Shown: positions 2,360 through 63,618, numbered from the stretch's first letter. The stretch is DNA of 64,000 bases from an uncultured Hyphomicrobiales bacterium (GCA_964467455.1 CAYXQJ010000006.1:1867-65866), one strand, 5' to 3'. Notes: generated by a model not told the origin, from the sequence alone. A program made the numbers and translations.

Positions 2360-2417
2360 TGCCGGGGAGCAATAGTGCCGGGTAAGCTTGCCGGGGAGCA
2401 ATAGTGCCGGGTAAGGT
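2360..2417. repeat. GCCGGG-doublet repeat, two tandem 29-nt units
   Basis: TGCCGGGGAGCAATAGTGCCGGGTAAG(CT/GT) occurs twice back to back. Each unit contains two TGCCGGG cores 16 nt apart. Lies between convergent 3' ends. Confidence 0.9.
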
Positions 2418-2424
2418 GGCTGCA

Positions 2425-2712
2425 TTACCCTTGATATGAGCGTTTGATCTCAGCGATCTCGACAGAGTACGACGCGTACCAATCACTACGGCCACGTTGC
2501 TGCGCAGTGACATGGTCTGCATTTCTCTTCCATGCCTTAATGTCTTCCTCTGACTCCCAATACGATAGCGCGATCTCCTGTGCGCCCTCTGTAATGGCAC
2601 TGAATTCAAGGCACCTATACTGGGTCAGAGCAAGTTCGCGAAGGTGACGCGCCATGGCGATGTAGTCGTCATCCAACTGCTTGATCGTTGCTCGAAAGAT
2701 CACGACATACAT
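2425..2712 (-). CDS. Antibiotic-biosynthesis-monooxygenase (ABM) domain protein
   Basis: 95-aa ORF MYVVIFRATIK...ALSYWESEEDIKAWK, with the ferredoxin-like ABM/Dabb pattern. Confidence 0.75.
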   Translation of the reverse strand: MYVVIFRATIKQLDDDYIAMARHLRELALTQYRCLEFSAITEGAQEIALSYWESEEDIKAWKRNADHVTAQQRGRSDWYASYSVEIAEIKRSYQG

Positions 2713-2728
2713 ACCTGTTCCTTAAGGT

Positions 2729-2786
2729 CTTACCCGGCAGCAATGCTCCCCGGCAAGCTTACCCGGCAGCAATGCTCCCCGGCAAG
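2729..2786. repeat. GCCGGG-doublet repeat, two tandem 29-nt units, inverted relative to 2360-2417
   Basis: CTTACCCGGCAGCAATGCTCCCCGGCAAG occurs twice. Its reverse complement differs from the 2387-2415 unit at 3 central positions. Confidence 0.9.
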
Positions 2787-2792
2787 GAGGGG

Positions 2793-4913
2793 TTAGTGTT
2801 GGATGGTGAGCAGCTCCGCTGCCACACCCCCCGCGTTCGCCATCGCCACCACGTACCGTCCCGAGGCCATCAGGGCGGCAGCGTCGATGCGGAGGCTGAA
2901 TGAGCCGACGTTGACGTGGTCGTAGGTTTCGCGCCAGACTTCCTGACCCGTCAGATCCGTGATCGTAAGGGTTAGGGGGCCGGCAGTTGCCACATCGACG
3001 GAGAGCGTAAGCGCAGATGATGCTGGATTCGGTGCTGCAGCGAGCGTGCCGACACGCGTCGTAACGTTGAATTCATCGGACGCGCCGTTCTCTTCGCCGG
3101 CAATGCTCGTGGTGCGGATCGAAGCGACGGCGCCTTTGCCGACCTCGTAGTACGTGCCGCTGTACGTTGTGCGCAAGGCACATCCATGCACACGGTACAA
3201 CACGTCGCCTTCATTCGACAGTGAGTCCTGTAGCGTGGTCTCGGTGATGGCATTCGGAGTGATACGGACCCATCCGGTGTTGGCATTGACGTATCGATAC
3301 ACAACGTAGGCGTCGATGTCATCTGCGGGCTTCGACCACGAGAGGTTGACCTTATTCGGATACTCCGTCGATGCCGTGACCTTGCCCATCGGAGTTACCG
3401 GCTGCATCGCTGCACGCAACGTTGGGTCACCCATCAAGGCGATGTGCACACCACGGTCGCCGATGCTCGCAAGCAGACCTTGGCCTTGTGCATTGTACGA
3501 GATCCACGGCGCGTACCGTCCCAGTTGATTTCCGTTGAGCGAAGCATTGTTGGCCGTAAGCAGGAAGGAGTAGCCGATGGTCTCGCCCAGACCCATGTGA
3601 TGGGTATACCACGCCGGACGTCCTGCCCAGCCACACGTCAACGCATACGGTGACGATGCAAGCGATCCGCGCATGAAATTGTCCTTGGTGTTCCAATCAC
3701 CAAAGTAGCTGCCGAACAATTGCGTGTGCACAGCATAGACGGGCTTGCTGGCAAGATCTGCCGTTGTCCCCACGCCCCCTGCAGAGGTATTGGTGCCACC
3801 ACCACAACCATAGGCAAAACGGTAGGTGCGCGGACCCGCCAACACACCGAAATAGTCGCCGGCCTTGACCGCCGTGTCACCAATGATCGGAGGCTGCGAA
3901 CGCCATGCCGATGCTGCAAAGTGCTCACCATACCCACCGAAATTGTCGTCGACCACGCCGGCATCCATCACGTCGATCTTGTTCGTACGAAACGCATGGT
4001 TCTTGATGAAGTACGCTTTCAACAGATCGAGCTCCGATGCCGTGAACGCCGGCATGTTGTAGAAGTCCACTCTGCCCACCGGCGTCTCCACGGGCGAGGA
4101 GAAGATGCTCTGGTCGTATTTGCCGTCAGCAGGAATGTTGGCGTTCACCGGACGCGACGTGTTGTTGATGTTAACTGAGACATCACTGTACATGCCGTTG
4201 TCGTCGCCGTAGATCCCATCCGCCGGCCATGCACCTCGATGGTCCGGCACGTGTCCGTCCGGTGCGATGTCGCCGGAGTAAGGGACGGGCACTCGACCCA
4301 CTAAGAAGATGGCTTTAAGATCACGCTTATGATCGGTCACCACGCTGCGGATAAGATCCCGAACCCGCAGCACTGCCGCACCATCAAAGTCCTCTGCGCG
4401 CTCAACGGCACGGATGTCCACCGTCCATGCCTCCGCTTCGAGATCGGCACGTAACGTATCAAGATGAGATGTGAGGGGGCTGACCATGGTCGTATCCACC
4501 AACACCAACACCCGCCCCCTATCTGAGGGAAGGGCTTTGATGCCACTCAACACATATCCGCTTGATACAAACCGACGGTAGATCGGAAGCTTCGTCGTGG
4601 TGTCAATGCCGGCCTGTTCGATGATCTCGCGCAACAGTCTGTACTCATAGGTGGTGCCGACAACAACATTCACATCGGTCCACGACGAGGCGACACTATC
4701 AACAGCCGCTACCGGATTCTGCGGCCAGGAGGCGGCATCCTTCGCCTTTCGATAGATCTGTACCGTTCGCTGCCCCTTATCCACCGACCACGTCAAGGTG
4801 ATGGAGGGGGCCGGTGTTTCGCTCACCTCGGCCCGGGCCATGACGACGGTACTCTTGGGACTCTGGGCCGCGGCAGTGATGGTAAGGCAGAAGAAAAGGA
4901 ATAAATAGCGCAT
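2793..4913 (-). CDS. Secreted FN3-containing protein with T9SS C-terminal sorting domain (central domain unassigned, weakly clan-CD/C25-like)
   Basis: Signal peptide MRYLFLFFCLTITAAAQ. FN3-like segments (TLTWSV..YEYRL; VNLSWSKP..LYRVH). C-terminal ~80 aa resemble a Por sorting domain (LTLTITDLTGQEVW...GRYVVAMANAGG). Confidence 0.7.
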   Translation of the reverse strand: MRYLFLFFCLTITAAAQSPKSTVVMARAEVSETPAPSITLTWSVDKGQRTVQIYRKAKDAASWPQNPVAAVDSVASSWTDVNVVVGTTYEYRLLREIIEQAGIDTTTKLPIYRRFVSSGYVLSGIKALPSDRGRVLVLVDTTMVSPLTSHLDTLRADLEAEAWTVDIRAVERAEDFDGAAVLRVRDLIRSVVTDHKRDLKAIFLVGRVPVPYSGDIAPDGHVPDHRGAWPADGIYGDDNGMYSDVSVNINNTSRPVNANIPADGKYDQSIFSSPVETPVGRVDFYNMPAFTASELDLLKAYFIKNHAFRTNKIDVMDAGVVDDNFGGYGEHFAASAWRSQPPIIGDTAVKAGDYFGVLAGPRTYRFAYGCGGGTNTSAGGVGTTADLASKPVYAVHTQLFGSYFGDWNTKDNFMRGSLASSPYALTCGWAGRPAWYTHHMGLGETIGYSFLLTANNASLNGNQLGRYAPWISYNAQGQGLLASIGDRGVHIALMGDPTLRAAMQPVTPMGKVTASTEYPNKVNLSWSKPADDIDAYVVYRYVNANTGWVRITPNAITETTLQDSLSNEGDVLYRVHGCALRTTYSGTYYEVGKGAVASIRTTSIAGEENGASDEFNVTTRVGTLAAAPNPASSALTLSVDVATAGPLTLTITDLTGQEVWRETYDHVNVGSFSLRIDAAALMASGRYVVAMANAGGVAAELLTIQH

Positions 4914-4917: not shown

Positions 4918-4948
4918 TGTGGTTGGTGGTTGGTAGTTCGTAGTTACT
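4918..4948. repeat. GGTTGGT-type heptamer array abutting the start codon of the minus-strand gene at 4913
   Basis: tgtGGTTGGTGGTTGGTAGTTCGTAGTTac. On the sense strand this reads (ACCAACC)n just upstream of the ATG. Confidence 0.85.
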
Positions 4949-4951
4949 TAC

Positions 4952-4986
4952 CTGGTACGTGGCACCTGGCACCTGGCACGTGGCAC
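4952..4986. repeat. Heptamer array (C/G)TGG(C/T)AC x5
   Basis: CTGGTAC GTGGCAC CTGGCAC CTGGCAC GTGGCAC, in the divergent intergenic region. Confidence 0.9.
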
Positions 4987-8000: not shown

Positions 8001-10082
8001 TTCTCATGGACGTCGAAGTATTCGCCCACGGGCACGCTGCCCTATGCCATCCCTCCGGGTGAGCGCGATACCGTCACCATCCGCTTTTGTCCGAACACAC
8101 CGGCTGATAGTACCACAACGTCCGTGCAGGCCCTCTTGCACATCAAGGCCAGCGGTTCGCAGTGGTCAAAAGAACTTGAGACATTCTTGATCGGAAAACG
8201 AGCGCTCACATTCGCCCCCTATCCGAAATTGATCCAGTTTCCGGCTGGTGTGATCGATGTGATGAGTCCGGTGCCGCGATTTGTTGACATCTCCATTCCG
8301 GGCTTCAATGTCAATCCGGCACAAGACACAGTGGTGATCGATTCGATCACGTTTGAGCCGAATGATCGCGTGTTTTTTGTGATCACTCCGGCCACCTTCC
8401 CGGTGGTGTTGTTGCCCGGACAGAAGATCCAAGTTGAGATCCGGCAACGTCCACGAGCACCTCGTGACTATGAAGCACGGATGATCATCCACTATAGTAA
8501 ACCATGTGCGGGACAGGATACGACGGTCTTGGTGAAGGGGGCAGGGTTTGCCCAACCGCGTGGTCTGACGTTCTCCTATGATCTCCTGCGCGCCGAACCC
8601 GATACGTTCGGCATGGTCTCGTGTGATACGCTTGATGTGCCGCTGTGGTCGTCGATCACGATCGATGCATCGGTCGTTGACGTCTTCATGCGCATTGACT
8701 ACGACACCACACAGTTGCGAATGTTAGGCATCTCGTCGCGTCTGCTCAGCAATCAATGTCAGTCGGCAACGGGCGGCATCACCTACATTCCGGCGGTCAA
8801 TCTGTCGCCATCGCCCTATGGTGGAACGGCCGTGGTGTTGAAGAACTTCTGCGGCATCGATTCGCTGTCGCCGTTCATGATGATGCATTTTGTCACGGTG
8901 AACAACAACCGCGCTGACAGTCGACTTACTGTTGACAGTTTGAACTTCGACACGGAAGACGTGATCCTCTACAAGCTTATCGCCACGGGTGACAGGGGCA
9001 CGGTGTTGGCATATAAGTCCGAGATCACCATACCACAGCCGACAGCGTTTGATAGTGTGCGCATCCTTGATTGTCTCGAGCGAACGATCGTGATCTACAA
9101 CACCGGCGACGTGGCGAACACGCTCGATTCGTTGTTGGATCTGCCTGTGTATACGACCGTGGTGAATGCGGTGCCGGCACTTGGCGATAGTATTCAGCCC
9201 GGTGACTCTGCCGTGGTGACGCTGCGGTTCTGTCCGGGCTCCGAACGTTTCATCGATACCAACCTTGTTGCCGTCAGCAGTGGGCCATGTGATACGCGCG
9301 ATACAACCGCGGTCACGGGCTATGGCTATGCACCGGAGCTTGATGTTGCCGTCGGCGCCATGGAGGTCAACTTCATCCTCGATACGCTCGGTGGCACGAT
9401 CGGCGATACGATCGAGATCCCTGTTATGCTCGACAAAGATGTGTCGGCCACCTATAACGGCGTCACGTACTGGCTCAACGGCCTCAGCGTCGACCTCACC
9501 GTTGTCTACAACGAGCGCTCGCTGAAGTTCCTCGGTGCAACGGCACTTGCCAAACCCGATGACATGACCGTGACGTCAACACTCGGTACCGTCACCATCA
9601 CGGGCACGAACATCGACTCCTTGTCAGGGGGCGAACTGGCACGTCTGCAGTTCGTTGTCACCGTTCCCGAATTCCAGCAGACCGACATCAGTGCATCGAT
9701 CAGCGGCTTCCTCTCCGATTCGCTGCAGTTCCTTGATATCGTGCCGGCGGGCAATATCACGCCGTTCGTAACAGGGGGCAAGTGCGACATCACCGTGGTG
9801 AAGTTCAGCACCGTTGGCACGCCGAAGATCGAGATCTATCCGAACCCGGTCTCGAGTGATGCCACCATCACGTTCCGCATGCAAGAGACGGTGCCGGTGG
9901 ATCTGCATCTCATCAACGCCGAAGGCATTGACGTCCGCACGCTGTTGGATGCAACCACCATCTTCAACGGTGGTGAATACGCTGTCCGTTTCAGTACGTC
10001 GGATCTAGCCGCAGGCATCTACTACGTTCGTATCACCGCCGGCGTCTTCACGAGCACAGTTCCTTTCGTGATCGTGAAATGA
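5049..10082 (+). CDS. Giant secreted adhesin-like protein: LamG domain, many Ig-like repeats, cohesin-like module, T9SS C-terminal domain
   Basis: Start moved to ATG 5049 (signal peptide MPMNAWIRVLSLLLIAIGTTVPSHGQ). LamG/ConA-like segment (GQWTHITAVFDGASASLKLYINGVL..IDEVRIWDRVLTDAEI). Repeated ~100-aa beta-sandwich modules. Cohesin-like IEIPVMLDKDVS..LSVDLTVVYNERSLKF. Sorting domain IEIYPNPVSSDATITF..GIYYVRITAG. Confidence 0.8.
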   Translation: MPMNAWIRVLSLLLIAIGTTVPSHGQYPAQCDTRKDCIGRAVALTVNSGRNAHFIELTGQLTKPRQTALSVEMWVIVDRQAGKRQFLGGLWGPNQDYNDQWVLYIDENDQLTFEVNPEATNLKNADNTILRTPASGIYGQWTHITAVFDGASASLKLYINGVLTAGPLTNAAYPVTYLRPMDRPDLSTLIGSCNALADDANLYRTMKGMIDEVRIWDRVLTDAEILCQRNLSLNGNEAGLIAYLRCNEPVNNVVQTCDATGNNHTGMLRSGASNQNSTRVLPRNVIVTPVTLTDEILCDSTRTWVFTVEDTSICGSSITTRARGPEAGNFTVTPRNLTLVKGRVDTIRVTFSGTLVGSFLDTLQVSPTNRCGYTTFVKLNVTRTTELSVSRNNVVFDTLLVGCKDKTYIDSTITICNTTDRLGSPRTVTISSITNREPLSYRVLNVTFPLILAPGQCTTLTIRSLVRDTTADYTDSLRIISDDRCQNGPSIIALRGRTQEVISIKNPGGTARIDTMKFSATCPGQLSNSIYYVWQNLTLAPIQIDTIIVPPDFTHYGIRFPFVLQPATGYNPIAVRFRPRNPGVVFDSIIIRTSANGCVIERKIYVTGRGLDNRVEWQVQGLVDAGTVVVGQQRTVNVIAKNNSNIDPLNVSLYVETGEAFELLGARGATIPPGGTVSIPVTFRPTDSLRYNDRLCLFETRCYTVDCIDLTGKGILETFRYSPLVMETENAVACGSKLDTVCIVNISGSSQTLTSVNFVNSTGKFRPVDPPSIPPTLTINNGDSVCFVLEYIPNDVTGDRADRAYIRYKNSGADWEVQLIGTSATPKIFITQYTAFGIVEVGDTRQQNLTVENTSALPVRIDSLTIGNGFNIVSISRPLPTVLQPRDSLTVVVEFRPTATQTYNAKLTAYSSDPCVITGAGDLNGRGIIMELESALSLVNFGYVRPCDCVERTIELLNGSLVFDMNVDSMWIDSTGVPGGRPQFFSWTSKYSPTGTLPYAIPPGERDTVTIRFCPNTPADSTTTSVQALLHIKASGSQWSKELETFLIGKRALTFAPYPKLIQFPAGVIDVMSPVPRFVDISIPGFNVNPAQDTVVIDSITFEPNDRVFFVITPATFPVVLLPGQKIQVEIRQRPRAPRDYEARMIIHYSKPCAGQDTTVLVKGAGFAQPRGLTFSYDLLRAEPDTFGMVSCDTLDVPLWSSITIDASVVDVFMRIDYDTTQLRMLGISSRLLSNQCQSATGGITYIPAVNLSPSPYGGTAVVLKNFCGIDSLSPFMMMHFVTVNNNRADSRLTVDSLNFDTEDVILYKLIATGDRGTVLAYKSEITIPQPTAFDSVRILDCLERTIVIYNTGDVANTLDSLLDLPVYTTVVNAVPALGDSIQPGDSAVVTLRFCPGSERFIDTNLVAVSSGPCDTRDTTAVTGYGYAPELDVAVGAMEVNFILDTLGGTIGDTIEIPVMLDKDVSATYNGVTYWLNGLSVDLTVVYNERSLKFLGATALAKPDDMTVTSTLGTVTITGTNIDSLSGGELARLQFVVTVPEFQQTDISASISGFLSDSLQFLDIVPAGNITPFVTGGKCDITVVKFSTVGTPKIEIYPNPVSSDATITFRMQETVPVDLHLINAEGIDVRTLLDATTIFNGGEYAVRFSTSDLAAGIYYVRITAGVFTSTVPFVIVK

Positions 10083-11257
10083 TCGACGTTGTTGTGATCG
10101 GCGGCGGTGCCGCCGGCCTCTTCTGTGCAGCAGTGGCAGGACAACGCGGTTTGCGGGTCGTCCTGTTGGAGCACAATGACAAACCCGGCAAGAAGATCCG
10201 CATCAGCGGCGGCGGACGTTGCAACTTCACCAACCGTGAAGTTGGTCCGAAGAACTTCTTGTCGCAGAACCCGCACTTCGCAACATCCGCACTCTCGCGC
10301 TACACACCGCAAGACTTCATCGCTCTCGTTGATCGTTACAACATCGCCTGGCATGAAAAGACGTTGGGTCAGTTGTTCTGTGATGGGTCGGCGCAGCAGA
10401 TCATCGACATGTTAGTGTCTGAGGGTAGAGGGGAGAGGGTTGAGTTTCTACTGCGTCATAGTGTGACAAGAGTGACGTCTGATGTTGCTTCGACAGGTTC
10501 TTCCGCCTTCAAGGTAGAGACGAATCACGGTATCTTTGAAACACGTAATGTTGTCGTTGCGAGTGGTGGGCTTTCCATTCCTTCGCTTGGCGCTACGGGC
10601 ATTGGTTATGACATTGCACGTGCTTTTGGTTTGCGGATCGTCGAGCCGGAGCCGGCGTTGGTGCCGTTGACGTTCGACCGTGCGTTCACGGAGCGTTGGG
10701 GTGCGTTGGCGGGCGTCAGCGTGCCAGTTGAGGCGCAAGCCGAAGGTCCTGCATTCCGTGAGAACATGCTCTTCACGCATCGCGGTCTTACCGGTCCCGC
10801 CATCTTGCAAGCATCATCTTATTGGACAGGGGGCGAGTTGGAGATCGATGTCTTGCCGGCACCGATCGTTCTTCCTTCCATCGCTGAGCTCAAGGCCGAC
10901 AAGCGCATCTTGCGCAATGTGTTGGGCGATCATCTGCCGTCGCGCTTTGTGCAGCAGTGGCCGGATGTCCGACTCGACAAAAAGGCGATCGACCTCAAGG
11001 ATACCGACGTTGCTGATGTGCTGCAGACATTGCATCACTGGATGATCACACCGAACGGCACCGAGGGATTTGCCAAGGCCGAGGTCACGCGCGGCGGCGT
11101 TGACACCCGCGACCTTTCGTCGAAGACGATGGAATGCAGAACACAGCCCGGACTCTACTTCATCGGCGAAGTGGTCGACGTCACCGGCTGGCTTGGCGGA
11201 TACAACTTTCAGTGGGCGTGGGCGAGTGCCTATGCATGTGCGCAAGCGTTGGCGTGA
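10079..11257 (+). CDS. HI0933/YhiN (BaiN-like) family NAD(P)/FAD-dependent oxidoreductase
   Basis: MIDVVVIGGGAAGLFCA Rossmann motif plus RISGGGRCNFTN. The ATG overlaps the upstream stop (ATGA). Confidence 0.85.
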   Translation: MIDVVVIGGGAAGLFCAAVAGQRGLRVVLLEHNDKPGKKIRISGGGRCNFTNREVGPKNFLSQNPHFATSALSRYTPQDFIALVDRYNIAWHEKTLGQLFCDGSAQQIIDMLVSEGRGERVEFLLRHSVTRVTSDVASTGSSAFKVETNHGIFETRNVVVASGGLSIPSLGATGIGYDIARAFGLRIVEPEPALVPLTFDRAFTERWGALAGVSVPVEAQAEGPAFRENMLFTHRGLTGPAILQASSYWTGGELEIDVLPAPIVLPSIAELKADKRILRNVLGDHLPSRFVQQWPDVRLDKKAIDLKDTDVADVLQTLHHWMITPNGTEGFAKAEVTRGGVDTRDLSSKTMECRTQPGLYFIGEVVDVTGWLGGYNFQWAWASAYACAQALA

Positions 11258-12412
11258 TCACTCGAGATTGAGCTGATCCAGGTAGGCCGAGTAAGCGAAC
11301 AGTCGATTTCGTTTGTTGCCGGTCACTTCACGCAGTATTCCGACCTCAACTAATCGACCCATGGCGGCATTCGCCGTCGGGAAGGCGAGTTCACCCATTG
11401 ATGCAGCGATCTCTACCGACAACACAGGACGGGATTGGGCAACACGTAGGACACGTTCTGCACTCGAGCGTCCTCTACCGAGGTCACGCAGCGACTCCAT
11501 GTCTCTTTGAAAGAGCTGTGAAATGCGTTGCGCTGTTTGTACGGCATTGTTCGACGTGGCGATCACTCCTTCCAGAAAGAACTGCAGCCACGTTGTCCAA
11601 TCGCCATGCTTACGGACTTCGTCGAGACGGCGGTAATATTCACTGCGATGTTTCTTGAAGTACACGCTGAGATACAGCAGCGGTTGCCTCAGAACGCCTT
11701 CGGTATGCAACAGCATGGCGATCAGTAATCGACCTGTACGTCCATTACCATCCAAGAACGGGTGAATGGTCTCGAACTGAACGTGTGCTAGGGCCGCTTT
11801 CTGCAAGGGGCTGTAGCTCGAAGAGTGCAGGAAGGATTCGAGTGCTCCCATACATTCGGCAACGTACTCGGGCGGTGGTGGCACAAAGTGTGCATTCCCG
11901 GGTCGCGTCCCTCCGATCCAGTTTTGCGTTTTCCGAAACACTCCCGGCTGTGCATGACCGCCTCGGCTTCGCGTCATCAAGATCTGATGCATCTCGCGGA
12001 TCAATCGGTTGGAGAGAGGAAAGCCACTTCGGAGTCGTTCCATGCCGTGTTGCAATGCAGCGACATAGTTCGACACTTCTTCGACGTCATCGAACGGTAC
12101 ACCCGGCACCGCTTCCAACTCGAACAATAAGAGATCGGAGAGTGATGATTGCGTACCCTCGATCTGAGATGACAGCACGGCTTCTTTTCGCACATAGCTG
12201 TAGAGGAAGACGTTGGCATCCGGCAGGAGGTCGGTCACCACATCAAGTCTCCCACAAGCAAGCAAGGCCTCATCATGGAGCTTGCGTAGTGCGGGCTCCA
12301 TCTGTAGCCAATTTTGCGGCGGAAGGGGACTGGGGATGAAGGCCTTTACGACCTCCCCATGCACTTCACGTCGTTGATATCTACCGGTCGGTCGACGTGT
12401 CATCGGGGTCAC
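11258..12412 (-). CDS. Fic family protein (class II, with N-terminal inhibitory motif and C-terminal wHTH-like region)
   Basis: Canonical Fic motif HPFLDGNGRTGRLL. Inhibitory-helix-type motif SSQIEG. GTG start at 12412, with an alternative ATG at 12403. Confidence 0.85.
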   Translation of the reverse strand: MTPMTRRPTGRYQRREVHGEVVKAFIPSPLPPQNWLQMEPALRKLHDEALLACGRLDVVTDLLPDANVFLYSYVRKEAVLSSQIEGTQSSLSDLLLFELEAVPGVPFDDVEEVSNYVAALQHGMERLRSGFPLSNRLIREMHQILMTRSRGGHAQPGVFRKTQNWIGGTRPGNAHFVPPPPEYVAECMGALESFLHSSSYSPLQKAALAHVQFETIHPFLDGNGRTGRLLIAMLLHTEGVLRQPLLYLSVYFKKHRSEYYRRLDEVRKHGDWTTWLQFFLEGVIATSNNAVQTAQRISQLFQRDMESLRDLGRGRSSAERVLRVAQSRPVLSVEIAASMGELAFPTANAAMGRLVEVGILREVTGNKRNRLFAYSAYLDQLNLE

Positions 12413-12415
12413 GAA

Positions 12416-12444
12416 CTTTAAATAAGAAAAACTCTTATTTAAAG
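12416..12444. terminator. Perfect AT-rich palindrome (12-bp stem, 5-nt loop); candidate terminator of the helicase/bla operon or operator of fic
   Basis: CTTTAAATAAGA-aaaac-TCTTATTTAAAG lies between the bla stop (12473) and the fic start (12412). No clear U-tract on either strand. Confidence 0.4.
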
Positions 12445-12472
12445 ATAACGCCTTATCCCTTAATAAGAACGG

Positions 12473-13294
12473 TCACTGACCTTTTGTGAGCTGCAGCGCC
12501 AACTCCGCAAGCTGACGCCGCGTAGCGGTCCAGCCGCCCATGTCGAAGCCGGGTTTGGGTTGGATGCAGACGGCAACGTAGCGGACGTTGGTGGCCGATT
12601 GCATCCAGCCGACGAACCAGCCGATGTCCGATCCGTCGCGGATGGCCCAGCCGGTCTTGCCGTATAAGGTGCCGTCGTTGGTGGCCATGATCGACATTAC
12701 GTTCATCATGGCGGCATGTGTTTGCTCGGTGATAGGAAGTTGCTTGTCGTGCAGTCGACGCAAGAAGTCGATCTGTTGCATCGGTGAGATCGTGCTCGCC
12801 CCCTGCAACCAGAAGATGTCGAGTGTACTGTCGTTGATCACAATACTTCCGTAGTTGAAGGCGTCCACCCACTTCTGCATCTTCTCGGTGCCGATGGAAC
12901 GGGCGAGTTCTTGATAGCAGGGGACGCAGGAGACCTTGAAGGCCTCGGCAAGTGTGAGGTCGCGCTCCCATGCCGGCATGGCGCGTGGTGCGCCGTCCCA
13001 ACGGAAGACGTGGTCGGCTGTGATGGTGCCGGTCTCAAGACCAATGAGGGTGTTGACGATCTTATACGTCGATGCCGGCAAGTGACCGGTGTTGAGGAGG
13101 TCGACGTTGTTGCATAACAAGACGTTCTTGCTGGAGTCGAAGACGGCGATACAACCGCTGACGTTGTTGGAGTCGAGTAGGTCTTGCAACAAGGTGCTGA
13201 CGGTCGGCTTCATGGGTTGCTCAGCCGGGGCTTGTTGTTTGGTCTCACAAGCAGTGAGAAGTATGATGGCCATCAGCATGATCAAGATGTTCAT
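12473..13294 (-). CDS. Class D (OXA-like) beta-lactamase / penicillin-binding-fold lipoprotein
   Basis: Start moved to ATG 13294 (MNILIMLMAIILLTAC lipobox). Motifs STYK (SxxK), SCV (SxV), YGS, KTG and WFVGW appear in class D order and spacing. Confidence 0.8.
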   Translation of the reverse strand: MNILIMLMAIILLTACETKQQAPAEQPMKPTVSTLLQDLLDSNNVSGCIAVFDSSKNVLLCNNVDLLNTGHLPASTYKIVNTLIGLETGTITADHVFRWDGAPRAMPAWERDLTLAEAFKVSCVPCYQELARSIGTEKMQKWVDAFNYGSIVINDSTLDIFWLQGASTISPMQQIDFLRRLHDKQLPITEQTHAAMMNVMSIMATNDGTLYGKTGWAIRDGSDIGWFVGWMQSATNVRYVAVCIQPKPGFDMGGWTATRRQLAELALQLTKGQ

Positions 13295-16557: not shown

Positions 16558-16563
16558 GGTTGA

Positions 16564-20998: not shown

Positions 20999-21000
20999 AT

Positions 21001-47009: not shown

Positions 47010-47034
47010 GAGTCAAAACGGAGATGAAACTGAA

Positions 47035-48369: not shown

Positions 48370-49810
48370 GTTGCACATCCGAAACTACATAAACGGCGGG
48401 TTTCATGACCCTGTTGGCGGGCAGTGGCTCGACAACGTCAATCCTGCCACGGGCGAGGTGTATTCACTGGTCGCCCGCAGTACCCAAGCCGACGTCGACC
48501 ATGCCGTCGAAGCAGCCCGTGCGGCCTTCCCGCACTGGTCCGGGCTGACGTCTAAACAACGTAGCGAGGTCTTGCTGGAAGTGTCGCGTAAGATCCGACT
48601 CCATCTTGAAGACCTGGCCCTGGCCGAATCCGACGATAACGGCAAACCCCTGTGGCTGTCGAGAAGCGTCGATATTCCCCGCGCCGAAGCCAACATGGCC
48701 TTCTTTGCCACCGAGATCCTGCACACGGAAACGGCGGCCCATCTGACCGATCAGCACACACTGAACTATACGGTCCGCTCGCCCCTTGGCGTCGTAGGCT
48801 GTATCTCGCCGTGGAACTTGCCGCTGTATCTGTTCACGTGGAAGATCGCTCCTGCCCTGGCTGCCGGCAACTGCGTCGTGGCCAAGCCGTCGGAGCTCAC
48901 GCCGATGACGGCCTTCATCTTCTCCAAACTCTGCACTGACGCAGGACTCCCTCCCGGTGTCTTGAACGTTGTTCATGGGTTAGGGGGCGAGTGTGGCGCC
49001 GCTATCGTTGATCATCCGCACGTCAAGGCGATCTCCTTTACCGGTGGCACAACAACGGGCGAGATCATCGCACGGACGGCCGCACCGAAGTTCAAGAAGT
49101 TGTCGCTGGAGCTTGGTGGAAAGAATCCGACGTTGGTCTTTGGCGACGTCGACATTCCGCACGTGGCGCGTCACGTTGCACGAGCAGCGTTCACCAACCA
49201 GGGCGAGATCTGCTTGTGCGGATCACGCATCTTCATCGAGCGCAGCATCTACGAAGAATTCAAACACGCACTGATCGCCGAGACGCAGCGCTTCAGGGTC
49301 GGCGACCCGCATGAAGCTGAATCTAAGATGGGCGCTGTGGTCAACGAAGCGCACATGAACAAGGTGCTGTCGTATATCGAGCTGGCCAAACAAGAAGGCG
49401 GTACCATCCTCACGGGCGGACATCGCGTGCACATCGAAGGTCGATGCGCCAACGGATTCTTCGTCGCGCCGACATTGATCGACGGACTTGATGCTCAGTG
49501 CCGCGTCAATCAAGAAGAGATCTTCGGTCCGGTGGCAACACTCATACCGTTCGATCATGAAGACGAAGCACTCGGCGGTGCGAACAGCACAATGTATGGC
49601 CTAGCCGCAAGCGTGTGGACTAACAACCTCAGCAAGGCCCATCGCGTTGCCAACAAGTTGGAAAGCGGCATCGTCTGGGTGAACTGCTGGCTCGTGCGCG
49701 ACCTGCGCACACCCTTCGGCGGCGTGAAGAACAGCGGCGTCGGACGCGAAGGCGGCACTGAAGCGTTGCGGTTCTTTACGGAGCCGAAAAACATTTGTAT
49801 TCAATATTGA
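48368..49810 (+). CDS. NAD-dependent aldehyde dehydrogenase (hydroxy/aminomuconic-semialdehyde dehydrogenase-like)
   Basis: Start moved to ATG 48368 (MLHIRNYINGGF). ALDH motifs VAKPSELTP, ELGGKNP, and EICLCGSR with the catalytic Cys. Confidence 0.85.
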   Translation: MLHIRNYINGGFHDPVGGQWLDNVNPATGEVYSLVARSTQADVDHAVEAARAAFPHWSGLTSKQRSEVLLEVSRKIRLHLEDLALAESDDNGKPLWLSRSVDIPRAEANMAFFATEILHTETAAHLTDQHTLNYTVRSPLGVVGCISPWNLPLYLFTWKIAPALAAGNCVVAKPSELTPMTAFIFSKLCTDAGLPPGVLNVVHGLGGECGAAIVDHPHVKAISFTGGTTTGEIIARTAAPKFKKLSLELGGKNPTLVFGDVDIPHVARHVARAAFTNQGEICLCGSRIFIERSIYEEFKHALIAETQRFRVGDPHEAESKMGAVVNEAHMNKVLSYIELAKQEGGTILTGGHRVHIEGRCANGFFVAPTLIDGLDAQCRVNQEEIFGPVATLIPFDHEDEALGGANSTMYGLAASVWTNNLSKAHRVANKLESGIVWVNCWLVRDLRTPFGGVKNSGVGREGGTEALRFFTEPKNICIQY

Positions 49811-49813
49811 ACA

Positions 49814-49841
49814 GCAAGTAGCGAGTAGCAAGTAGCGAGTA
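49814..49841. repeat. Heptamer array GC(A/G)AGTA x4 ending 1 nt before the RidA ATG
   Basis: GCAAGTA GCGAGTA GCAAGTA GCGAGTA c ATG. Confidence 0.9.
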
Positions 49842-57257: not shown

Positions 57258-58997
57258 GTGTTCTATCTGCTTGCCCCTTGCACCTTCCTCACCCTTGCAT
57301 CCTTGCTTTCGGCTTGCACCGAGCCCGGCTACCCCGAAGGCGACCTCGGTCCGGCTGCCGGCGGCAAGAAGGCAGGCGGCATTTATCGTGTGAATGAGAC
57401 CGGTGAACTGAGCTCCCTGGATCCGCCACGGATCAACGATGTCACGTCGTCGCATGTCTGTTTGAACATCTTTGACAATCTGATCAACTTCGACGCCGAC
57501 CTCAACATCGCGCCGGAGCTGGCGGACTCGTTCACGATCGGTGACGATGGTACAACGTACACGTACCACTTGCGCACCGATGTCTACTTTCACGACGATG
57601 CATGTTTCCCCAACGGCAGGGGACGTCGGTTCGTTGCTGACGATGTGAAATATTCCTTCACGCGTGTCTGCGACATTCGTGTCGGCACGAAGAACTTCGA
57701 CTACTTCCGCGACAAGGTCGTTGGTGCGAGTGAATATTTCGACGCCACGCGAGAGGTCTTCCGCAACGGCGGTGCACTCAAGGTCAACAACATTCCCGGC
57801 TTCGTCGTTGTCAACGACTCCACGTTCCAGATCAAGTTGACGAAACCCTTCGCCCCTTTCGAGAATTATCCGGCGCTTACGGGCATGGCCATCCATTGTC
57901 GGGAAGCCGTGGAGAAATATGGCAAGGACGTCTCCGAACATCCTGTCGGCACCGGTCCGTTTCAATTCGTCTCGTGGGCACCGGATCGTGAGTTGATCTT
58001 GAAGCGCAATCCGCGATATTGGCGACGCGATGAACACGGCAATCGTCTGCCGCTGCTTGATGGCGTGCGATTCTCCTTCATGAAGGATGACAAACTGCAG
58101 TTGTTGGAGTTCGCCGCAGGGAAGTTGGAAGAATCGTATCGCATCCCGAACGAGTTCTTTGCCAACATCGTTGACGAGAACAAGAATCCGACAGGGAAGT
58201 TCTCGAAGTTCAAGTTGTTGCATGTGCCTGCATTGTCGACGCAGTTCTACGGCATGCTCACGATCGACCCGCTCTTCAAGGACGTCCGCATTCGCAAGGC
58301 CATCAACATGGCCATCGACCGTCGACGCATCATCCGTTACGTCTTGCACGGTCAAGCTGCCGGTCCTGCCGAACACGGCCTTGTTCCTTCCAGCATGCCC
58401 GGTTACGACTATGACTCTGTCCGCGGCTATCGCTACGATCCCGAGCAGGCACGTCGACTTCTCGCCGAGGCAGGCTATCCCGATGGCAAAGGCCTTCCCG
58501 AGATCACCCTCCAATTGAATGCAGGGGGCGGGCGGAACGTCTCCATTGCCGAAGCCATTCAAGGCATGTTGAAAGAGAACCTCAACATCAGCATCAAGTT
58601 GTTGCAAGTGGAGTTCGCCCAACATCTCGAGCAGATCGATGCCGGCCATGCGCCCTTCTATCGTCTGGGTTGGGTGGCCGACTATCCCGATCCGGAATCG
58701 TTCTTGAACCTTTTTTATGGCAAGATCGTGCCGGCATCAGGCGGCATTAGTCCGATCAACCATGTGCGTTTTCGCAATGCCGAGTTTGATGCTGCGTTCG
58801 AGAAGGCCATGACGACCACGGATCGTCAGGAGCGCATGCGCCTATATCGTGTTGCCGAACAGATCGCCATCGACCATGCACCGATGCTGCTGATCATGCA
58901 CGATGAAGATTACCGCTTCATCCAACCCTATGTGATGGACTATCCCAACAACGCCATGGACCGTTTGCGGTTGCATGGTGTGTGGTTTAACCGGTAG
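57258..58997 (+). CDS. ABC transporter substrate-binding lipoprotein, family 5 (peptide/nickel type)
   Basis: Family-5 SBP collinearity (YTYHLRTDVYFHDD.., GTGPFQFVSW.., WVADYPDPESFL). Lipobox LLSAC. GTG 57258 is proposed as the start (uncertain). The track start 56997 overlaps ompA. Confidence 0.75.
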   Translation: MFYLLAPCTFLTLASLLSACTEPGYPEGDLGPAAGGKKAGGIYRVNETGELSSLDPPRINDVTSSHVCLNIFDNLINFDADLNIAPELADSFTIGDDGTTYTYHLRTDVYFHDDACFPNGRGRRFVADDVKYSFTRVCDIRVGTKNFDYFRDKVVGASEYFDATREVFRNGGALKVNNIPGFVVVNDSTFQIKLTKPFAPFENYPALTGMAIHCREAVEKYGKDVSEHPVGTGPFQFVSWAPDRELILKRNPRYWRRDEHGNRLPLLDGVRFSFMKDDKLQLLEFAAGKLEESYRIPNEFFANIVDENKNPTGKFSKFKLLHVPALSTQFYGMLTIDPLFKDVRIRKAINMAIDRRRIIRYVLHGQAAGPAEHGLVPSSMPGYDYDSVRGYRYDPEQARRLLAEAGYPDGKGLPEITLQLNAGGGRNVSIAEAIQGMLKENLNISIKLLQVEFAQHLEQIDAGHAPFYRLGWVADYPDPESFLNLFYGKIVPASGGISPINHVRFRNAEFDAAFEKAMTTTDRQERMRLYRVAEQIAIDHAPMLLIMHDEDYRFIQPYVMDYPNNAMDRLRLHGVWFNR

Positions 58998-59027
58998 AGG
59001 GTAGAGGGTAGAGGGTAGAGGGTAGAG
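58993..59027. repeat. Heptamer array GGTAGAG x5; the first unit contains the SBP stop codon
   Basis: GGTAGAG x5 gives four GGG tracts separated by TAGA. Confidence 0.95.
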
Positions 59028-59030: not shown

Positions 59031-60290
59031 TCATTCGTCGTCGTCACCCTCTGTTTCGAGGTCGGGGATGTGATGAAAGGCGATGCGCATGGGGGCAGAG
59101 TTCTTCGCATTCCACGACGTGCCCATGTAGATGGTGTTCTTACCGTATTTCACGTTGAGTTTGTCGAGTCCGGCGTTGAGGGCTTCGCGGGCCGGTCCGG
59201 TGTTATCGAACAGTGCCATTGGTGTTGCGTCGGCAAAGAACAACTTGGTAAATGCAACAGAGACCTTCATGGGGATGTGCTCGCCCCCTACCTGTTGAGT
59301 GTGTAGTTGTGACCGATCCGGTCGGGCGTTGAGGATGTTGCTGAGGGCGTTCGTGAGTTGAATGATGTCGGCGGTTGGTGTGATGTCGTGATCGAGTTTC
59401 CACTTTGCGCCGTCGCGATAACGAATGCTCACGTAGAGGTTGCCGGTGACGAGTCCGTATGAGCGCAGGCGCATGGCCGCCTTTTGCAGTAGGCGGTGGA
59501 GGACGCCGTTGGAGCCCTCGACGTTGCGCAATGAAGGTTCGAGGACGTGTTGGTGGCTGATGGACGAGGTGCGTGTTTCGATGTGGGGGACGTTGAAGCC
59601 GCGAAGTTTTTGCCACATGCGTTCGCCTTCGACGCTACCCCAGGCGTCGCGGAGTTGGTCCTTGGTGGCATTGCACAACATCTCGACGGTGTAGATGCCG
59701 TGGCGATAGAGGCGCTCATACATCTTGCGTCCGATGCCAACGAGGTCGCGGAGTTCCAGCTTGTAGAGTACGTCGGGCAGATCTTCTTCTTCGATCACAA
59801 CGAGACCGTCGGGTTTCATCATGTCGGTAGCTGTCTTTGCCAAATAGTCGTTTGGTGCGATGCCGACGGAGCACTTGAGGTATTCGCCGACCTGTTGAGC
59901 GATCGTACGTTTGACGTCGTGGGCGAGGGCGACTGCATTCTCGCGCTTGCGCATACGTCCGGTGAGCGAGCAGGCCACTTCGTCGATCGACATCACGCGG
60001 TCGATATGGATGACCGATTCGATCGTCTCAACGAGGCGGTTGTGGAATTCGACGTAGGCGTTATGTCGGGCATGGACCAGGATGAGTCCGGGACACATCT
60101 GTTTTGCTTCGGCGATGCGCGTTCCTGTTTTTACACCGAAGGCCTTGGCTTCATACGAGGCAGCGATAGCGGACGTGGTATCGGTCATCACCGGCACGAT
60201 GGCGATCGGTTTACCTCGCAGCTCGGGGCGTAGTTGTTGTTCGACCGAGGCGAAGTAGGAGTTGAAGTCGATGAAGAGGGAGCGAAGCAA
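59031..60290 (-). CDS. Y-family DNA polymerase (DinB/ImpB-UmuC-like)
   Basis: (M)LRSLFIDFNSYFASVEQQLRPELRGKPIAIVP..SIDE, the Y-family palm motifs. TTG start directly abutted by the repeat array. Confidence 0.8.
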   Translation of the reverse strand: MLRSLFIDFNSYFASVEQQLRPELRGKPIAIVPVMTDTTSAIAASYEAKAFGVKTGTRIAEAKQMCPGLILVHARHNAYVEFHNRLVETIESVIHIDRVMSIDEVACSLTGRMRKRENAVALAHDVKRTIAQQVGEYLKCSVGIAPNDYLAKTATDMMKPDGLVVIEEEDLPDVLYKLELRDLVGIGRKMYERLYRHGIYTVEMLCNATKDQLRDAWGSVEGERMWQKLRGFNVPHIETRTSSISHQHVLEPSLRNVEGSNGVLHRLLQKAAMRLRSYGLVTGNLYVSIRYRDGAKWKLDHDITPTADIIQLTNALSNILNARPDRSQLHTQQVGGEHIPMKVSVAFTKLFFADATPMALFDNTGPAREALNAGLDKLNVKYGKNTIYMGTSWNAKNSAPMRIAFHHIPDLETEGDDDE

Positions 60291-60291
60291 T

Positions 60292-60339
60292 GTGAGAATG
60301 TGAGAATGTGAGAATGTGAGAATGACTCAATGATTCAAT
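60292..60339. repeat. Octamer arrays GTGAGAAT x4 then GA(C/T)TCAAT x2
   Basis: Begins 2 nt from the polymerase start codon. On the sense strand it reads (ATTCTCAC)4, which is G-free. Confidence 0.95.
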
Positions 60340-60343
60340 GTTT

Positions 60344-60457
60344 CGGTTATTCGTTCCTCACCTTCGGATCGGAATGACACTCGGTTATTCGTTCCTCACC
60401 TTCGGATCGGAATGACACTCGGTTATTCGTTCCTCACCTTCGGATCGGAATGACACT
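60344..60457. repeat. 38-nt direct repeat x3 (identical copies, no spacers), each able to form a hairpin
   Basis: CGGTTATTCGTTCCTCACCTTCGGATCGGAATGACACT x3. Arms TCGTTCC/GGAATGA give 6 Watson-Crick pairs plus one G-T. Confidence 0.95.
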
Positions 60458-60497
60458 CGGTTATTCGGTTATTCGGTTATTCGGTTATTCGCTGACT
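60458..60497. repeat. Octamer array CGGTTATT x5, overlapping the 3' end of the DUF2007-like gene
   Basis: The unit equals the first 8 nt of the 38-mer. It encodes the C-terminal NNRITE plus stop of the minus-strand gene. Confidence 0.95.
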
Positions 60498-60727: not shown

Positions 60728-60780
60728 CCTTTCCCGGCATCTATGCTTCCCGGCATGGATGCCCGGCATGGATGCCCGGC
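60728..60780. repeat. GCCGGG-doublet repeat (reverse orientation) plus GATGCCCGGCATG x2
   Basis: The reverse complement of 60728-60758 equals CCATGCCGGGAAGCATAGATGCCGGGAAAGG, identical to 62937-62967. Confidence 0.9.
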
Positions 60781-62894: not shown

Positions 62895-62895
62895 T

Positions 62896-62968
62896 CATGC
62901 CGGGAAGCATAGATGCCGGGAAAGGACTCCGGGAAACCATGCCGGGAAGCATAGATGCCGGGAAAGGA
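62896..62968. repeat. GCCGGG-doublet repeat, two identical 31-nt units separated by 11 nt
   Basis: CATGCCGGGAAGCATAGATGCCGGGAAAGGA at 62896-62926 and 62938-62968. Confidence 0.95.
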
Positions 62969-62973
62969 ACGTT

Positions 62974-63585
62974 ATGCAAAATGATAGACCGAATCTAGAC
63001 CTCGCGCGTCAGTTCACGCGCGACATTGGACCGGCGACCATGATCGTCGGTGCCTTGATCGTGATCCACGCCGTTGTGCTGCAGATCATCGGCTCGACCT
63101 TCGTCGAGCTGTTCGTGCTTCCCTATGGATTGATGATGATCTTGTTTGGTGCCGCAGCGTTCGCACGCACCGAGTCGATGTCCGGACAAGGACTTCGCTG
63201 GGTCGTGGTCTTGGTCTTTGCAGGGGGCGGAGCATTCTCCCTTTGGAAATGGGCAGGACTCATCTGGGGGTCGCGCTCTGAAGCGATGATGGGCGATCCT
63301 CTGATGATGGGATTCTATTTGATGGCCGGGCCTGCGTTGTTGGTGCCTGCAGGCCTCGCCGCCGTGCGTCCGGGATGGGTACCGTTGATCGCTGTGCCCG
63401 CGATCGTCTCACTTGCCGGCGGCAGCGTGTTGGGGCATGGCACCTATGTGTTGCTTGAGCAATTCAAGACCACGGAATTGCGCAGTCCTCTTCCCGACAC
63501 CATGCTGCTCCTTGGCGTGGTGCTGACGTCGGCGGCATTGATCCTGTATTCTGCGCAGCGCGGCATAGCACTTCGAACAAAGTGA
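62974..63585 (+). CDS. Hypothetical membrane protein (about 6 TM)
   Basis: 203-aa hydrophobic ORF. No motif recognised. Confidence 0.55.
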   Translation: MQNDRPNLDLARQFTRDIGPATMIVGALIVIHAVVLQIIGSTFVELFVLPYGLMMILFGAAAFARTESMSGQGLRWVVVLVFAGGGAFSLWKWAGLIWGSRSEAMMGDPLMMGFYLMAGPALLVPAGLAAVRPGWVPLIAVPAIVSLAGGSVLGHGTYVLLEQFKTTELRSPLPDTMLLLGVVLTSAALILYSAQRGIALRTK

Positions 63586-63589
63586 GATC

Positions 63590-63618
63590 CATGCCGGGAA
63601 GCAGAGATGCCGGGAAGG
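63590..63618. repeat. GCCGGG-doublet repeat, single unit, 2 nt from the transposase-like gene stop
   Basis: CATGCCGGGAAGCAGAGATGCCGGGAAGG. Confidence 0.9.

Follow-up and report, generated by a model that had tools for sequence, protein, structure and literature searches.

The stretch of DNA described here is a 64,000-nucleotide (nt) segment, hereafter the window, of an assembly deposited as an uncultured Hyphomicrobiales bacterium (GCA_964467455.1, CAYXQJ010000006.1:1867-65866), and its subject is a set of short tandem arrays that occupy most of the gaps between the genes. The gene content is that of an ordinary chromosome: Pfam matches identify type IX secretion system (T9SS) sorting-domain proteins, LeuRS, a formyltransferase, MiaE, DinB, FeoAB, and an AddA-like helicase, and the G+C content is ~56%. 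All source-named homologues of the LeuRS come from metagenome-assembled genomes labeled Kapabacteria/Kapaibacteriota or “Ignavibacteria bacterium,” and the host is an uncultured Kapabacteria lineage. The data available for comparison comprised 64 kb of this genome and 11 to 22 kb of each relative.

A curated gene model was built from Pfam matches, LeuRS homologue lengths, and gene calls in relatives; the longest (mechanical) open reading frames (ORFs) read through several arrays. The LeuRS start was put at position 39102 (minus strand) on the basis of its translation and of homologue lengths of 844 to 853 amino acids, and other starts were placed beyond the arrays by Pfam domains and the gene calls in relatives. 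With this map, 95.7% of the window is coding and 4.3% (2,747 nt) is intergenic. The window contains no tRNAs and no Rfam matches at gathering thresholds, which rules out the arrays being known RNA genes.

Tandem Repeats Finder (period of 6 to 12, at least 3 copies, arrays merged), with units also read directly in the sequence, yielded 19 arrays totaling 822 nt, with periods of 7, 8, and 11 and copy numbers of 3.5 to 9.8, whereas 30 dinucleotide-preserving shuffles of the window gave 0 to 3 arrays each (mean, ~0.5). Including repeats with longer units brings the total to 26 arrays and 1,211 nt. Every array listed in a previous interpretation made without database searches (the sequence-only reading) was recovered within a few bases and with the units it had named; only implied there were a 29-nt repeat and its reverse complement, a perfect 38-nt repeat, and the 13/16-nt ATGCCGGGAA repeats. 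Intergenic DNA contains 1,165 of the 1,211 array bases; the other 46 overlap the ends of genes, and gene interiors contain none, in agreement with the earlier remark that no comparable arrays were noticed inside conserved coding cores. The sole interior repeat, a GCCGAA hexamer at 25916-25936, is in frame and coding.

Arrays make up 42% of all intergenic DNA. The earlier statement that nearly every gap consists mostly of arrays is a slight overstatement: 15 of the 18 gaps of at least 30 nt contain arrays, and 12 of the 18 are at least 50% array, but three gaps, all between 10 and 26 kb, have none. Arrays are found at the 3′ ends of genes as often as at the 5′ ends, and the genes that they flank are unrelated in function (LeuRS, GDPD, aldehyde dehydrogenase, dinB, and feoAB). 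The region from 10000 to 26000 represents 16 kb without any array, despite three gaps of 60 to 276 nt; within it, G+C falls to 51% at 18 to 22 kb, and this region may have a different history.

The arrays belong to a limited set of unit families. When arrays of the window and of two relatives (L002 and L003, characterized below) were linked if they had an exact 11-mer in common on either strand, 41 pairs were found, compared with 2.2 (maximum, 9) in random segments, which bears out the earlier claim that units are reused at unlinked loci in both orientations. The largest family, GGGTGMAA/GGCGAAAG, has nine arrays across the window, L002, and L003. Other families are GGTTGGT (four arrays), GGTTGAG/GGTAGAG (four), CTGGCAC (three), the ATGCCGGGAA 29-mer group (three plus two arrays), GGACG (two), and the 11-mer (two); more than ten families coexist in the 64 kb. 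The arrays are as follows, with the strand on which the unit is read.

2360 to 2415, plus strand: 29-nt unit (16+13, TGCCGGGGAGCAATAG TGCCGGGTAAGCT), 1.9 copies, between the stop of an amino acid permease gene and the stop of a small ABM-like gene (2425-2712, minus strand); from Tandem Repeats Finder, sequence, and Pfam.

2729 to 2786, minus strand: reverse complement of the same 29-nt unit, 2 copies (Tandem Repeats Finder), between the stop of a T9SS protein gene and the ABM-like gene, upstream of the latter.

4919 to 4948, plus strand: GGTTGGT, ~3 copies, 5 nt from the start of a T9SS protein gene (4913, minus strand), whose sense is the C-rich strand.

4950 to 4986, plus strand: CTGGCAC, 5.3 copies (previously written STGGYAC).

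26704 to 26764, plus strand: GGGTGMAA, 7.5 copies, 3 nt from the hand-set start of the minus-strand gene 26125-26700.

27000 to 27030, minus strand: GGGTGMAA, 4 copies, overlapping the stop codon of an amidohydrolase gene (27023).

28755 to 28794, plus strand: GGTTGGT, 5.7 copies, abutting the start codon of a PQ-loop gene (28757, minus strand).

28803 to 28832, minus strand: GGTTGAG/GGTAGAG, 4.3 copies, overlapping the GDPD stop codon (28826).

32283 to 32318, plus strand: GGTTGAG, 5.1 copies, the first of three G-rich arrays upstream of a minus-strand beta-lactamase-like gene.

32319 to 32371, plus strand: GGCGAAAR, 6.9 copies, with an array of the same unit at the same position in L003 (as CCCTTTCG).

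32401 to 32435, plus strand: NNGGACG, 5 copies (9 in L003).

33825 to 33863, plus strand: 11-mer GACCTRAAGGM, 3.6 copies, spanning the last 7 codons and the stop of a major facilitator superfamily (MFS) gene.

35251 to 35358, plus strand: 11-mer GACCTRAAGGM, 9.8 copies, between two minus-strand genes and not at this site in L002 or L003.

39115 to 39157, plus strand: GGGTGCAA, 5.4 copies, lying upstream of LeuRS, 12 nt from its start codon (39102, minus strand), with the C-rich strand being the LeuRS sense.

39160 to 39187, minus strand: GGGTGGAA, 3.5 copies, 3 nt past the stop of a glyoxalase gene.

44682 to 44735, plus strand: GGGTGMAA, 6.4 copies, upstream of a DUF5723 gene (minus strand).

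44769 to 44793, minus strand: GGTTGAG, 3.6 copies, 4 nt past the GFO stop.

45760 to 45807, plus strand: GGTGGGT/GGTTGGT, ~6 copies, abutting the GFO start codon (45759, minus strand).

49813 to 49841, plus strand: GCRAGTA, 4.1 copies, filling the 32-nt gap from the stop of an aldehyde dehydrogenase gene to the RidA start.

58993 to 59027, plus strand: GGTAGAG, 5 perfect copies, overlapping the stop of an SBP_bac_5 gene and filling a convergent gap.

60289 to 60340, plus strand: GTGAGAAT, 4.5 copies, followed by AATGAYTC, 2.5 copies, abutting the dinB start (60290, minus strand).

60343 to 60491, plus strand: perfect 38-nt repeat, 3.3 copies (60343-60467), running into 4.4 copies of CGGTTATT, an octamer identical to the first 8 nt of the 38-mer.

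60731 to 60780, minus strand: ATGCCGGGAA-type 13/16-nt repeat (reverse complement), upstream of feoA.

62897 to 62965, plus strand: ATGCCGGGAAGCATAGATGCCGGGAAAGG (29-nt unit), 2 copies, between the feoB stop and the next gene.

63590 to 63620, plus strand: one copy of the ATGCCGGGAAGCATAGATGCCGGGAAAGG 29-nt unit, filling a convergent gap.

A separate 29-nt (16+13) ATGCCGGGAA/TGCCGGG family at 2360-2415, 2729-2786, 60731-60780, 62897-62965, and 63590-63620 brackets single small genes or operons, namely, the ABM-like 95-amino-acid gene, feoAB, and the gene at 62974-63585. The 38-nt repeat at 60343-60467, upstream of dinB, is flanked on both sides by octamer arrays and contains TCGGAATGAC, which is present again at 35378-35387.

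The arrays are oriented with respect to their neighbors. Most of their units are strongly skewed (mean absolute G/C skew of 0.69, compared with 0.39 for random k-mers), and in 14 of the 14 strongly skewed arrays of the window, the 5′ end of the G-rich strand lies beside the nearer gene; read in the sense of that gene, repeats are G-rich after a stop and C-rich before a start. Four arrays overlap stop codons, and arrays paired in one gap read G-rich and then C-rich (26704/27000, 28755/28803, 39115/39160, and 44682/44769).

This strand rule extends well beyond the window. A scan of one genome per prokaryotic species for (GGGTGMAA)x3 found matches at at least 118 loci in many phyla, a sample chosen for this one unit. 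Adjacent arrays of opposite skew separated by ≤60 nt were in G-then-C order 41 times and in C-then-G order twice. The nearer gene was the 5′ neighbor of the G strand by 86:27 in co-oriented, 35:9 in convergent, and 21:6 in divergent gaps, and lone arrays showed the same bias (46:19; p=0.001), with median distances of 13 and 54 nt. The G strand was coding in 62 arrays lying <5 nt from a stop, compared with 6 of the opposite orientation, and the C strand was coding by 24 to 6 in arrays 5 to 20 nt from a called start, a position that is approximate. In convergent gaps, where both boundaries are exact stops, the ratio was 21:0 if the array abuts the stop and 11:7 if it is at least 5 nt clear; the rule is sharpest where arrays touch stop codons. 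The two strands also differ in codon content: among 271 skewed 7/8-mer arrays, 61% have stop codons in every one of the three G-strand frames and 80% have no stop on the C strand, and the density of start-like triplets (ATG, GTG, and TTG) is 0.106 per nt for the G strand and 0.015 per nt for the C strand.

Orthologous regions in relatives show how the arrays change. L002 is ~95% identical to the window in DNA and 98% identical in LeuRS protein; LeuRS identities are 92% for L003, 83% for L004, 78% for L146 and L147, 77% for L123, 75% for L124, and 67% for L125. The window, L002, L003, and L004 (LeuRS identity of at least 83%) carry ~2.9 to 4.6 arrays per 10 kb, and L123, L124, L125, L146, and L147 (67 to 78%), which have the same gene order, carry 0 to 0.4 per 10 kb; L146 is array-free although its gaps reach 266 and 372 nt. 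Since arrays occur in L002 to L004 and not in these more distant relatives, the trait is confined to the sub-clade with LeuRS identities of at least 83%.

Within this sub-clade, several kinds of change are seen. Array 45760-45807 is stably inherited, being one single nucleotide polymorphism (SNP) away from its L002 copy. Copy number also changes in place: upstream of the DUF5723 gene, the window has approximately three more TTGCACCC units than L002, which has about 2 to 3 (3.4 by Tandem Repeats Finder), and the GGACG array, with 5 units in the window, reaches 9 in L003, the difference being a ~29-nt block that repeats a ~35-nt higher-order unit. Units also drift in concert, TTTCACCC of the window being TTTCGCCC in the L003 array of the DUF5723 upstream gap. 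Whole arrays are gained or lost: between the glyoxalase and LeuRS genes, the window has an 88-nt gap with an inverted pair of octamer arrays, where L002 and L003 have a gap of 9 nt. Finally, one family may stand in place of another. Past the GFO stop, GGTTGAG in the window is replaced by GTGCCAG in L002 and L003, which is the reverse complement of the window unit at 4950-4986, and in the AhpC/MFS gap the 11-mer of the window is replaced by 5.6 copies of AACTGGG in L003.

Some changes in gene content occur beside arrays. The gene content of the slot upstream of LeuRS (39103-39574 in the window; 9383-9990 in L004) varies: the window, L002, and L003 have a glyoxalase gene there, L123, L124, and L146 have no extra gene, and L004 has a 23S_rRNA_IVP-family gene bracketed by (ACGGGGG)x16 and (TCCCCCG)x6. 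The segments 33867-35240 and 45830-47430 of the window carry genes that are missing from array-free relatives and have an array at an edge: an AhpC-like gene sits between the two 11-mer arrays, and two ORFs between an XerC/D-like gene and GFO have array 45760-45807 at one edge. As markers of synteny breakpoints, however, the arrays hold only partly, as some insertions relative to L123 and L124 are edged by arrays and others are not.

The unit GGGTGMAA is not peculiar to this lineage. The matches listed include Prevotella, Flavobacteriales, Saprospiraceae, Chloroflexia, Longimicrobium, Acidobacteriota, Gemmataceae, cyanobacteria, and Desulfuromonadales, and many of the at least 118 8-kb loci hold several further 7- to 9-nt arrays, up to 15. 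Many unrelated genomes (L005 to L122; for example, L086, L102, L078, L035, and L009) carry 10 to 15 different arrays of this kind per 8 kb, and TCAGTTG/CAACTGA, GGAGATT, and GATTAGA are units that recur across phyla. In viral contigs used as a control, however, (GGGTGMAA)x3 was found at 9 loci, compared with 3, 4, and 3 for composition-matched permuted octamers. With an excess of only ~3-fold, horizontal spread of GGGTGMAA across phyla was rejected, and its cross-phylum recurrence therefore looks to be mostly a general repeat background with an approximately 3-fold preference.

We suggest, with a probability of about 0.6, that the arrays are slippage-driven, self-homogenizing repeats that fill intergenic gaps and whose orientation is filtered by the stop and start signals of their neighbors. 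Replication slippage or unequal exchange would drive expansion and homogenization, and template switching or ectopic copying between arrays may move a unit family to a new gap and so produce the replacements described above. Arrays would thereby come to fill very short ancestral gaps right up to the gene boundaries, where selection may act on orientation according to what the neighboring gene tolerates. An array touching a 3′ end would survive only with its G strand coding, in which case it supplies or backs up a stop, and an array beside a start only with its C strand coding, as a G-poor leader without false starts or Shine-Dalgarno-like runs. This filter is suggested by the richness of the G strand in stop and start triplets, of which the C strand has almost none. 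Two arrays in one gap would consequently read 5′-G-rich and then C-rich-3′, and, where their units are complementary, would give strong RNA or DNA hairpins that may, as a side effect, influence mRNA stability, termination, or coupling. The drop in convergent gaps from 21:0 to 11:7 favors a filter at the boundary over an intrinsic polarity of the generating process. For the same reason, polar deletion at replication-blocking G-rich arrays, considered as a source of the strand rule and patterned on the G-quadruplex (G4) deletions of Caenorhabditis elegans (PMC4654259), is disfavored.

In these terms, the earlier view that reuse of identical units argues against independent slippage is partly right: the presence of different unit families at two orthologous gaps of close relatives supports it, but slippage is clearly active, given the changes in copy number and the drift. 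Likewise, the proposal of a dispersed class that is either propagated or selected is sound insofar as the arrays are dispersed, intergenic, and drawn from a limited unit repertoire, but nothing was found that speaks for a mobile element.

Several points weigh against this interpretation. Slippage, template switching, and the selective filter are all inferred from sequence comparison, and pure slippage poorly explains either one unit at unlinked loci or the swap of a whole array. The G strand is coding by 22 to 6 even in arrays 5 to 20 nt from a stop, which need not supply one. Stop and start content is itself tied to G/C skew, such that sequence cannot separate cause from correlate, and the gene calls at the at least 118 outside loci are heuristic longest ORFs. 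In addition, the array region upstream of the beta-lactamase-like gene appears, by eye, ~93% identical between the window and L003, compared with ~65 to 70% for the neighboring nonrepetitive intergenic DNA, and the flanking coding DNA, at ~84%, also looks less conserved than this region. This apparently higher conservation, at one locus, could reflect function rather than neutrality.

Function is the core of a second explanation, in which the arrays are selected cis-acting structure elements of RNA or DNA whose hairpins or G4s terminate, insulate, or stabilize transcripts or couple translation, with C-rich arrays providing leaders free of structure, on the assumption that the lineage seldom uses Shine-Dalgarno sites. 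Some predicted folds are strong: the LeuRS-gap pair (39115-39157 and 39160-39187) forms a hairpin of −48.7 kcal/mol (z of −5.4), and the sense RNAs of the 11-mer array at 35251-35358 and of array 2729-2786 (folded as 2711-2794) reach −49.8 kcal/mol (z of −6.1) and −42 kcal/mol (z of −3.4), respectively, while the RNA of 60731-60780 reaches −31.3 kcal/mol (z of −3.5). The C-rich sense leader at 32280-32400 is predicted to be essentially unstructured (−6.1 kcal/mol over 121 nt), as this explanation expects, and the apparent conservation of the beta-lactamase-like upstream arrays and a strand rule common to many phyla also favor it. Short tandemly repeated repetitive (STRR) sequences of cyanobacteria, for which no function is known, have been suggested to act in transcript stability or translational coupling (PMC2670836), and the Xanthomonas repeats are mostly transcribed (PMC4692102).

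Structure is, however, not a general property of the arrays, many of which fold no better than shuffles (z of −1.4 to +1.3), and because of this the strong hairpins are probably by-products rather than the reason for the arrays' existence. The hairpins are not followed by a T-run. Four G3 tracts, (G3+N1-7)x3 G3+, occur in only 4 of the 26 arrays, which rules out the G4 as a common denominator, although array 26704-26764 is predicted to be able to form a three-tetrad G4 and (GGGTGAAA)4, (GGTTGGT)4, and (GGTAGAG)4 are candidate G4-forming repeats. Units are interchangeable at the same orthologous gap, adjacent genes have no function in common, and near-identical strains and close relatives do without arrays, as in the 9-nt LeuRS gap of L002 and L003 and in L123, L124, and L146. 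Selection for structure is accordingly an unlikely general explanation.

It is doubtful, and less probable again, that the unit families are multimeric sites for a DNA- or RNA-binding protein (for example, a global regulator, a nucleoid protein, or an S1/Csp/CsrA-like protein) and so define regulons. A small repertoire of units at many loci would fit this idea, and it is most plausible for the ATGCCGGGAA family, whose motifs are paired 16 nt apart and occur only around feoAB and neighboring small genes; such pairs look like possible protein-binding sites. Tandem elements in Geobacter have been interpreted as regulator binding sites or RNA elements (PMC2700814), and binding has been proposed for Beggiatoaceae repeats (PMC4679880) and for the Nostoc recF/recO heptamers, which are reported to have modest effects on recF and recO expression (bioRxiv 10.1101/2022.06.06.494920). 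On the other hand, more than ten families in 64 kb lie beside unrelated genes and equally often at 3′ and 5′ ends, different units are swapped at the same gap, sister lineages with the same genes are array-free, and no candidate binding protein was identified.

Arrays might also be laid down actively, by a small mobile element or by break repair that extends 3′ ends with units copied from existing arrays or from a short template. The presence or absence of a whole inverted pair in strains that are ~95% identical, at an empty site without a seed, is in keeping with this idea, as are cassette-like replacement by units present elsewhere in the genome, the 41:2 polarity of paired arrays, the gene bracketed by inverted arrays in L004, and the small genes bracketed by arrays in the window. 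Templated gap filling in particular, in which both 3′ ends are extended with G-rich units and then joined, would, if true, directly yield the near-universal G-then-C pairs, the replacements, and the abrupt emergence of the trait in a single sub-clade. Both the general idea and this version of it seem very improbable, since there are no target-site duplications, terminal inverted repeats, fixed length, or nearby transposase, and more than ten units are too many for a single template. Relatives without arrays have also conserved the XerC/D-like gene at 47443-48378, the convergent polarity (21:0 touching the stop, 11:7 clear of it) fits a boundary filter better, and slippage in place and concerted drift are directly seen.

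An assembly artefact or misread coding sequence, suggested by the longest ORFs that pass through several arrays and by the Logan contigs (L002 and L003) that break at them, is so improbable that it can be set aside: array 49813-49841 is identical in an independent assembly of SRR15237804 (Logan contig L145), orthologous arrays with SNPs are found in three other assemblies from other samples, arrays occur among the loci from isolate genomes (e.g., Prevotella conceptionensis and Hoylesella saccharolytica), the LeuRS homologue lengths fit a start at 39102 while Pfam domains and relatives put other starts beyond arrays, and none of the unit lengths (7, 8, and 11) is divisible by 3. Because of the identical copy and the orthologous arrays, the arrays are not an artefact of assembly, a possibility that the sequence-only reading had raised.

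The short-read Logan contigs (k=31) do stop in or beside repeats. That of L003 ends inside arrays on both sides (1-34 and 10917-10957), that of L002 stops in repeat-rich C/T sequence just past its last gene (13730-13856), and contigs from the window's own sample measure only 2.8 to 3.7 kb. As the contigs of L002 and L003 stop within arrays or next to them, arrays break k-mer assemblies; such repeats probably fragment metagenome assemblies and are hence likely underreported.

Other features of the intergenic DNA were noted in passing. The segment 32440-32657 (plus strand) is a conserved noncoding leader upstream of the MFS transporter gene (start at 32658); it ends in a terminator-like hairpin and T-run at ~32608-32642 that is retained in L003 with compensatory changes, gives only one weak Rfam match (STnc250; E=0.09), and may represent an attenuator, a riboswitch, or a small RNA. 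Positions 26956-26988, between the two GGGTGMAA arrays, hold 2.4 copies of a palindromic 14-mer, TTTCCAAATTGGAA, adjoined by a possible hydrophobic 23-residue mini-ORF at 26872-26946 (plus strand; DRVRYALFILIGLLFAWLIYFSE), which shows no homology to the 32-amino-acid ORF that L146 has at this position.

What STRR-type repeats do and how they originate have been open questions since 1990, and this lineage is a natural experiment on both: sister lineages with the same gene order have either repeat-free gaps of ~10 to 60 nt or array-filled ones, and strains that are ~95% identical differ by whole arrays. The case adds this sister-lineage contrast, replacement at orthologous gaps, and a codon-content hypothesis, and it confirms across phyla, in the loci sampled, that the strand rule of Xanthomonas and Nostoc also holds in about a hundred genomes. 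In practice, arrays pull the starts of longest ORFs upstream and may mislead gene callers, and they may serve as strain markers.

The sequence-only reading did not recognize the arrays as a described family, but the same phenomenon has been published for cyanobacteria, for Xanthomonas and Nostoc, for Beggiatoaceae and Bacteroidetes, and for Geobacter. Its exclusion of three other repeat classes is upheld. Arrays resemble repetitive extragenic palindromic sequences and bacterial interspersed mosaic elements (REP/BIME), MITEs, and CRISPR in being short, repeated, and intergenic, and inverted array pairs can fold like REP hairpins. However, the units are strongly G/C skewed and not self-complementary, with hairpins arising only from array pairs, unlike the imperfect palindromes of ~20 to 40 nt in REP/BIME. 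A comparison of filled and empty sites (the window versus L002 and L003) shows no target-site duplication, no common termini such as terminal inverted repeats, and no fixed length, unlike MITEs, which are defined elements in many near-identical copies; in the filled LeuRS gap, the entire 9-nt spacer is replaced. Units of 7 to 11 nt (or 29 to 38 nt) are contiguous, without unique spacers, unlike CRISPR repeats, which measure ~23 to 47 nt and alternate with unique spacers of comparable length. Phase-variation contingency loci of host-adapted pathogens also have tandem repeats near gene starts that change copy number by slippage, but the window units are longer, flank housekeeping genes (LeuRS, formyltransferase/GDPD, and aldehyde dehydrogenase), and lie in half of the cases at 3′ ends; contingency repeats sit in the reading frame or the promoter spacer of surface or virulence genes, and the window arrays are not within reading frames.

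In Geobacter metallireducens, dozens of loci carry four to five tandem copies of one heptamer or octamer (GGACCGG, GTTGCTYN, or MTYCTGA), mostly intergenic and often paired on opposite strands, with one family also inside genes (PMC2700814). The window arrays are similarly multilocus tandem heptamers and octamers, mostly intergenic and with opposite-strand pairs, but their copy number is variable rather than fixed, and they are kept out of gene interiors. MacGregor (2015) described arrays of TAACTGA and other heptamers in Beggiatoaceae, cyanobacteria, and five Bacteroidetes, with shorter, repeat-free gaps in the same gene neighborhoods of close relatives (PMC4679880). There, too, intergenic heptamers lie a few nucleotides from starts and are patchy across taxa; unlike them, the window has no TAACTGA dimers, and its arrays are equally at 3′ ends and belong to many families.

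The G-rich, G4-forming heptamers of Rehm et al. (2015), GGGAATC in Xanthomonas and GGGGA(C/T)T in Nostoc, occur genome-wide and are overrepresented in noncoding DNA (PMC4692102). Their G-rich strand is coding within 50 bp after stops and noncoding within 50 bp before starts, they lie nearer to the 5′-side neighbor of the G strand, singly or as inverted pairs, and they vary in length and sequence between close relatives, beside functionally unrelated genes and with no known function (PMC4692102). The window arrays share with them units of ~7 nt, the intergenic excess, the bias in strand and position, the inverted pairs, and the variation between relatives. They obey the same strand rule but are not of the GGGNATC type with four G3 tracts (found in the 4 arrays noted above) and four copies: dimers of GGGAATC, GGGGACT, and GGGGATT number zero in the window, there is no visible preference for four copies within the range of 3.5 to 9.8, many families coexist, including octamers, an 11-mer, and a 29-mer, and the host belongs to another phylum, Kapabacteria.

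STRR sequences, attributed to Mazel et al. (1990) as cited in PMC4692102, comprise several tandem families of ~7 bp that are dispersed intergenically and can form hairpins between genes (PMC2670836). All of these features recur in the window, although by definition or usage STRRs belong to filamentous heterocystous cyanobacteria and the host here is Kapabacteria. The units of STRR1, STRR2, and STRR3 are CCCCAGT, TTGGTCA, and CAACAGT; dimers of these units number zero in the window, and the nearest match is AACTGGG in L003, with one base different from STRR1. The arrays of the window fit none of the particular unit sequences published but nevertheless show what marks the class in general, with head-to-tail units of 5 to 11 nt in at least ~3 copies, a noncoding excess, shared families, and variation between relatives. 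We thus assign them, by their sequence features, to the already described class of long-unit simple sequence repeats (5 to 11 nt) of STRR-like character; what is new here is the Kapabacteria host lineage and the sequences of the units.

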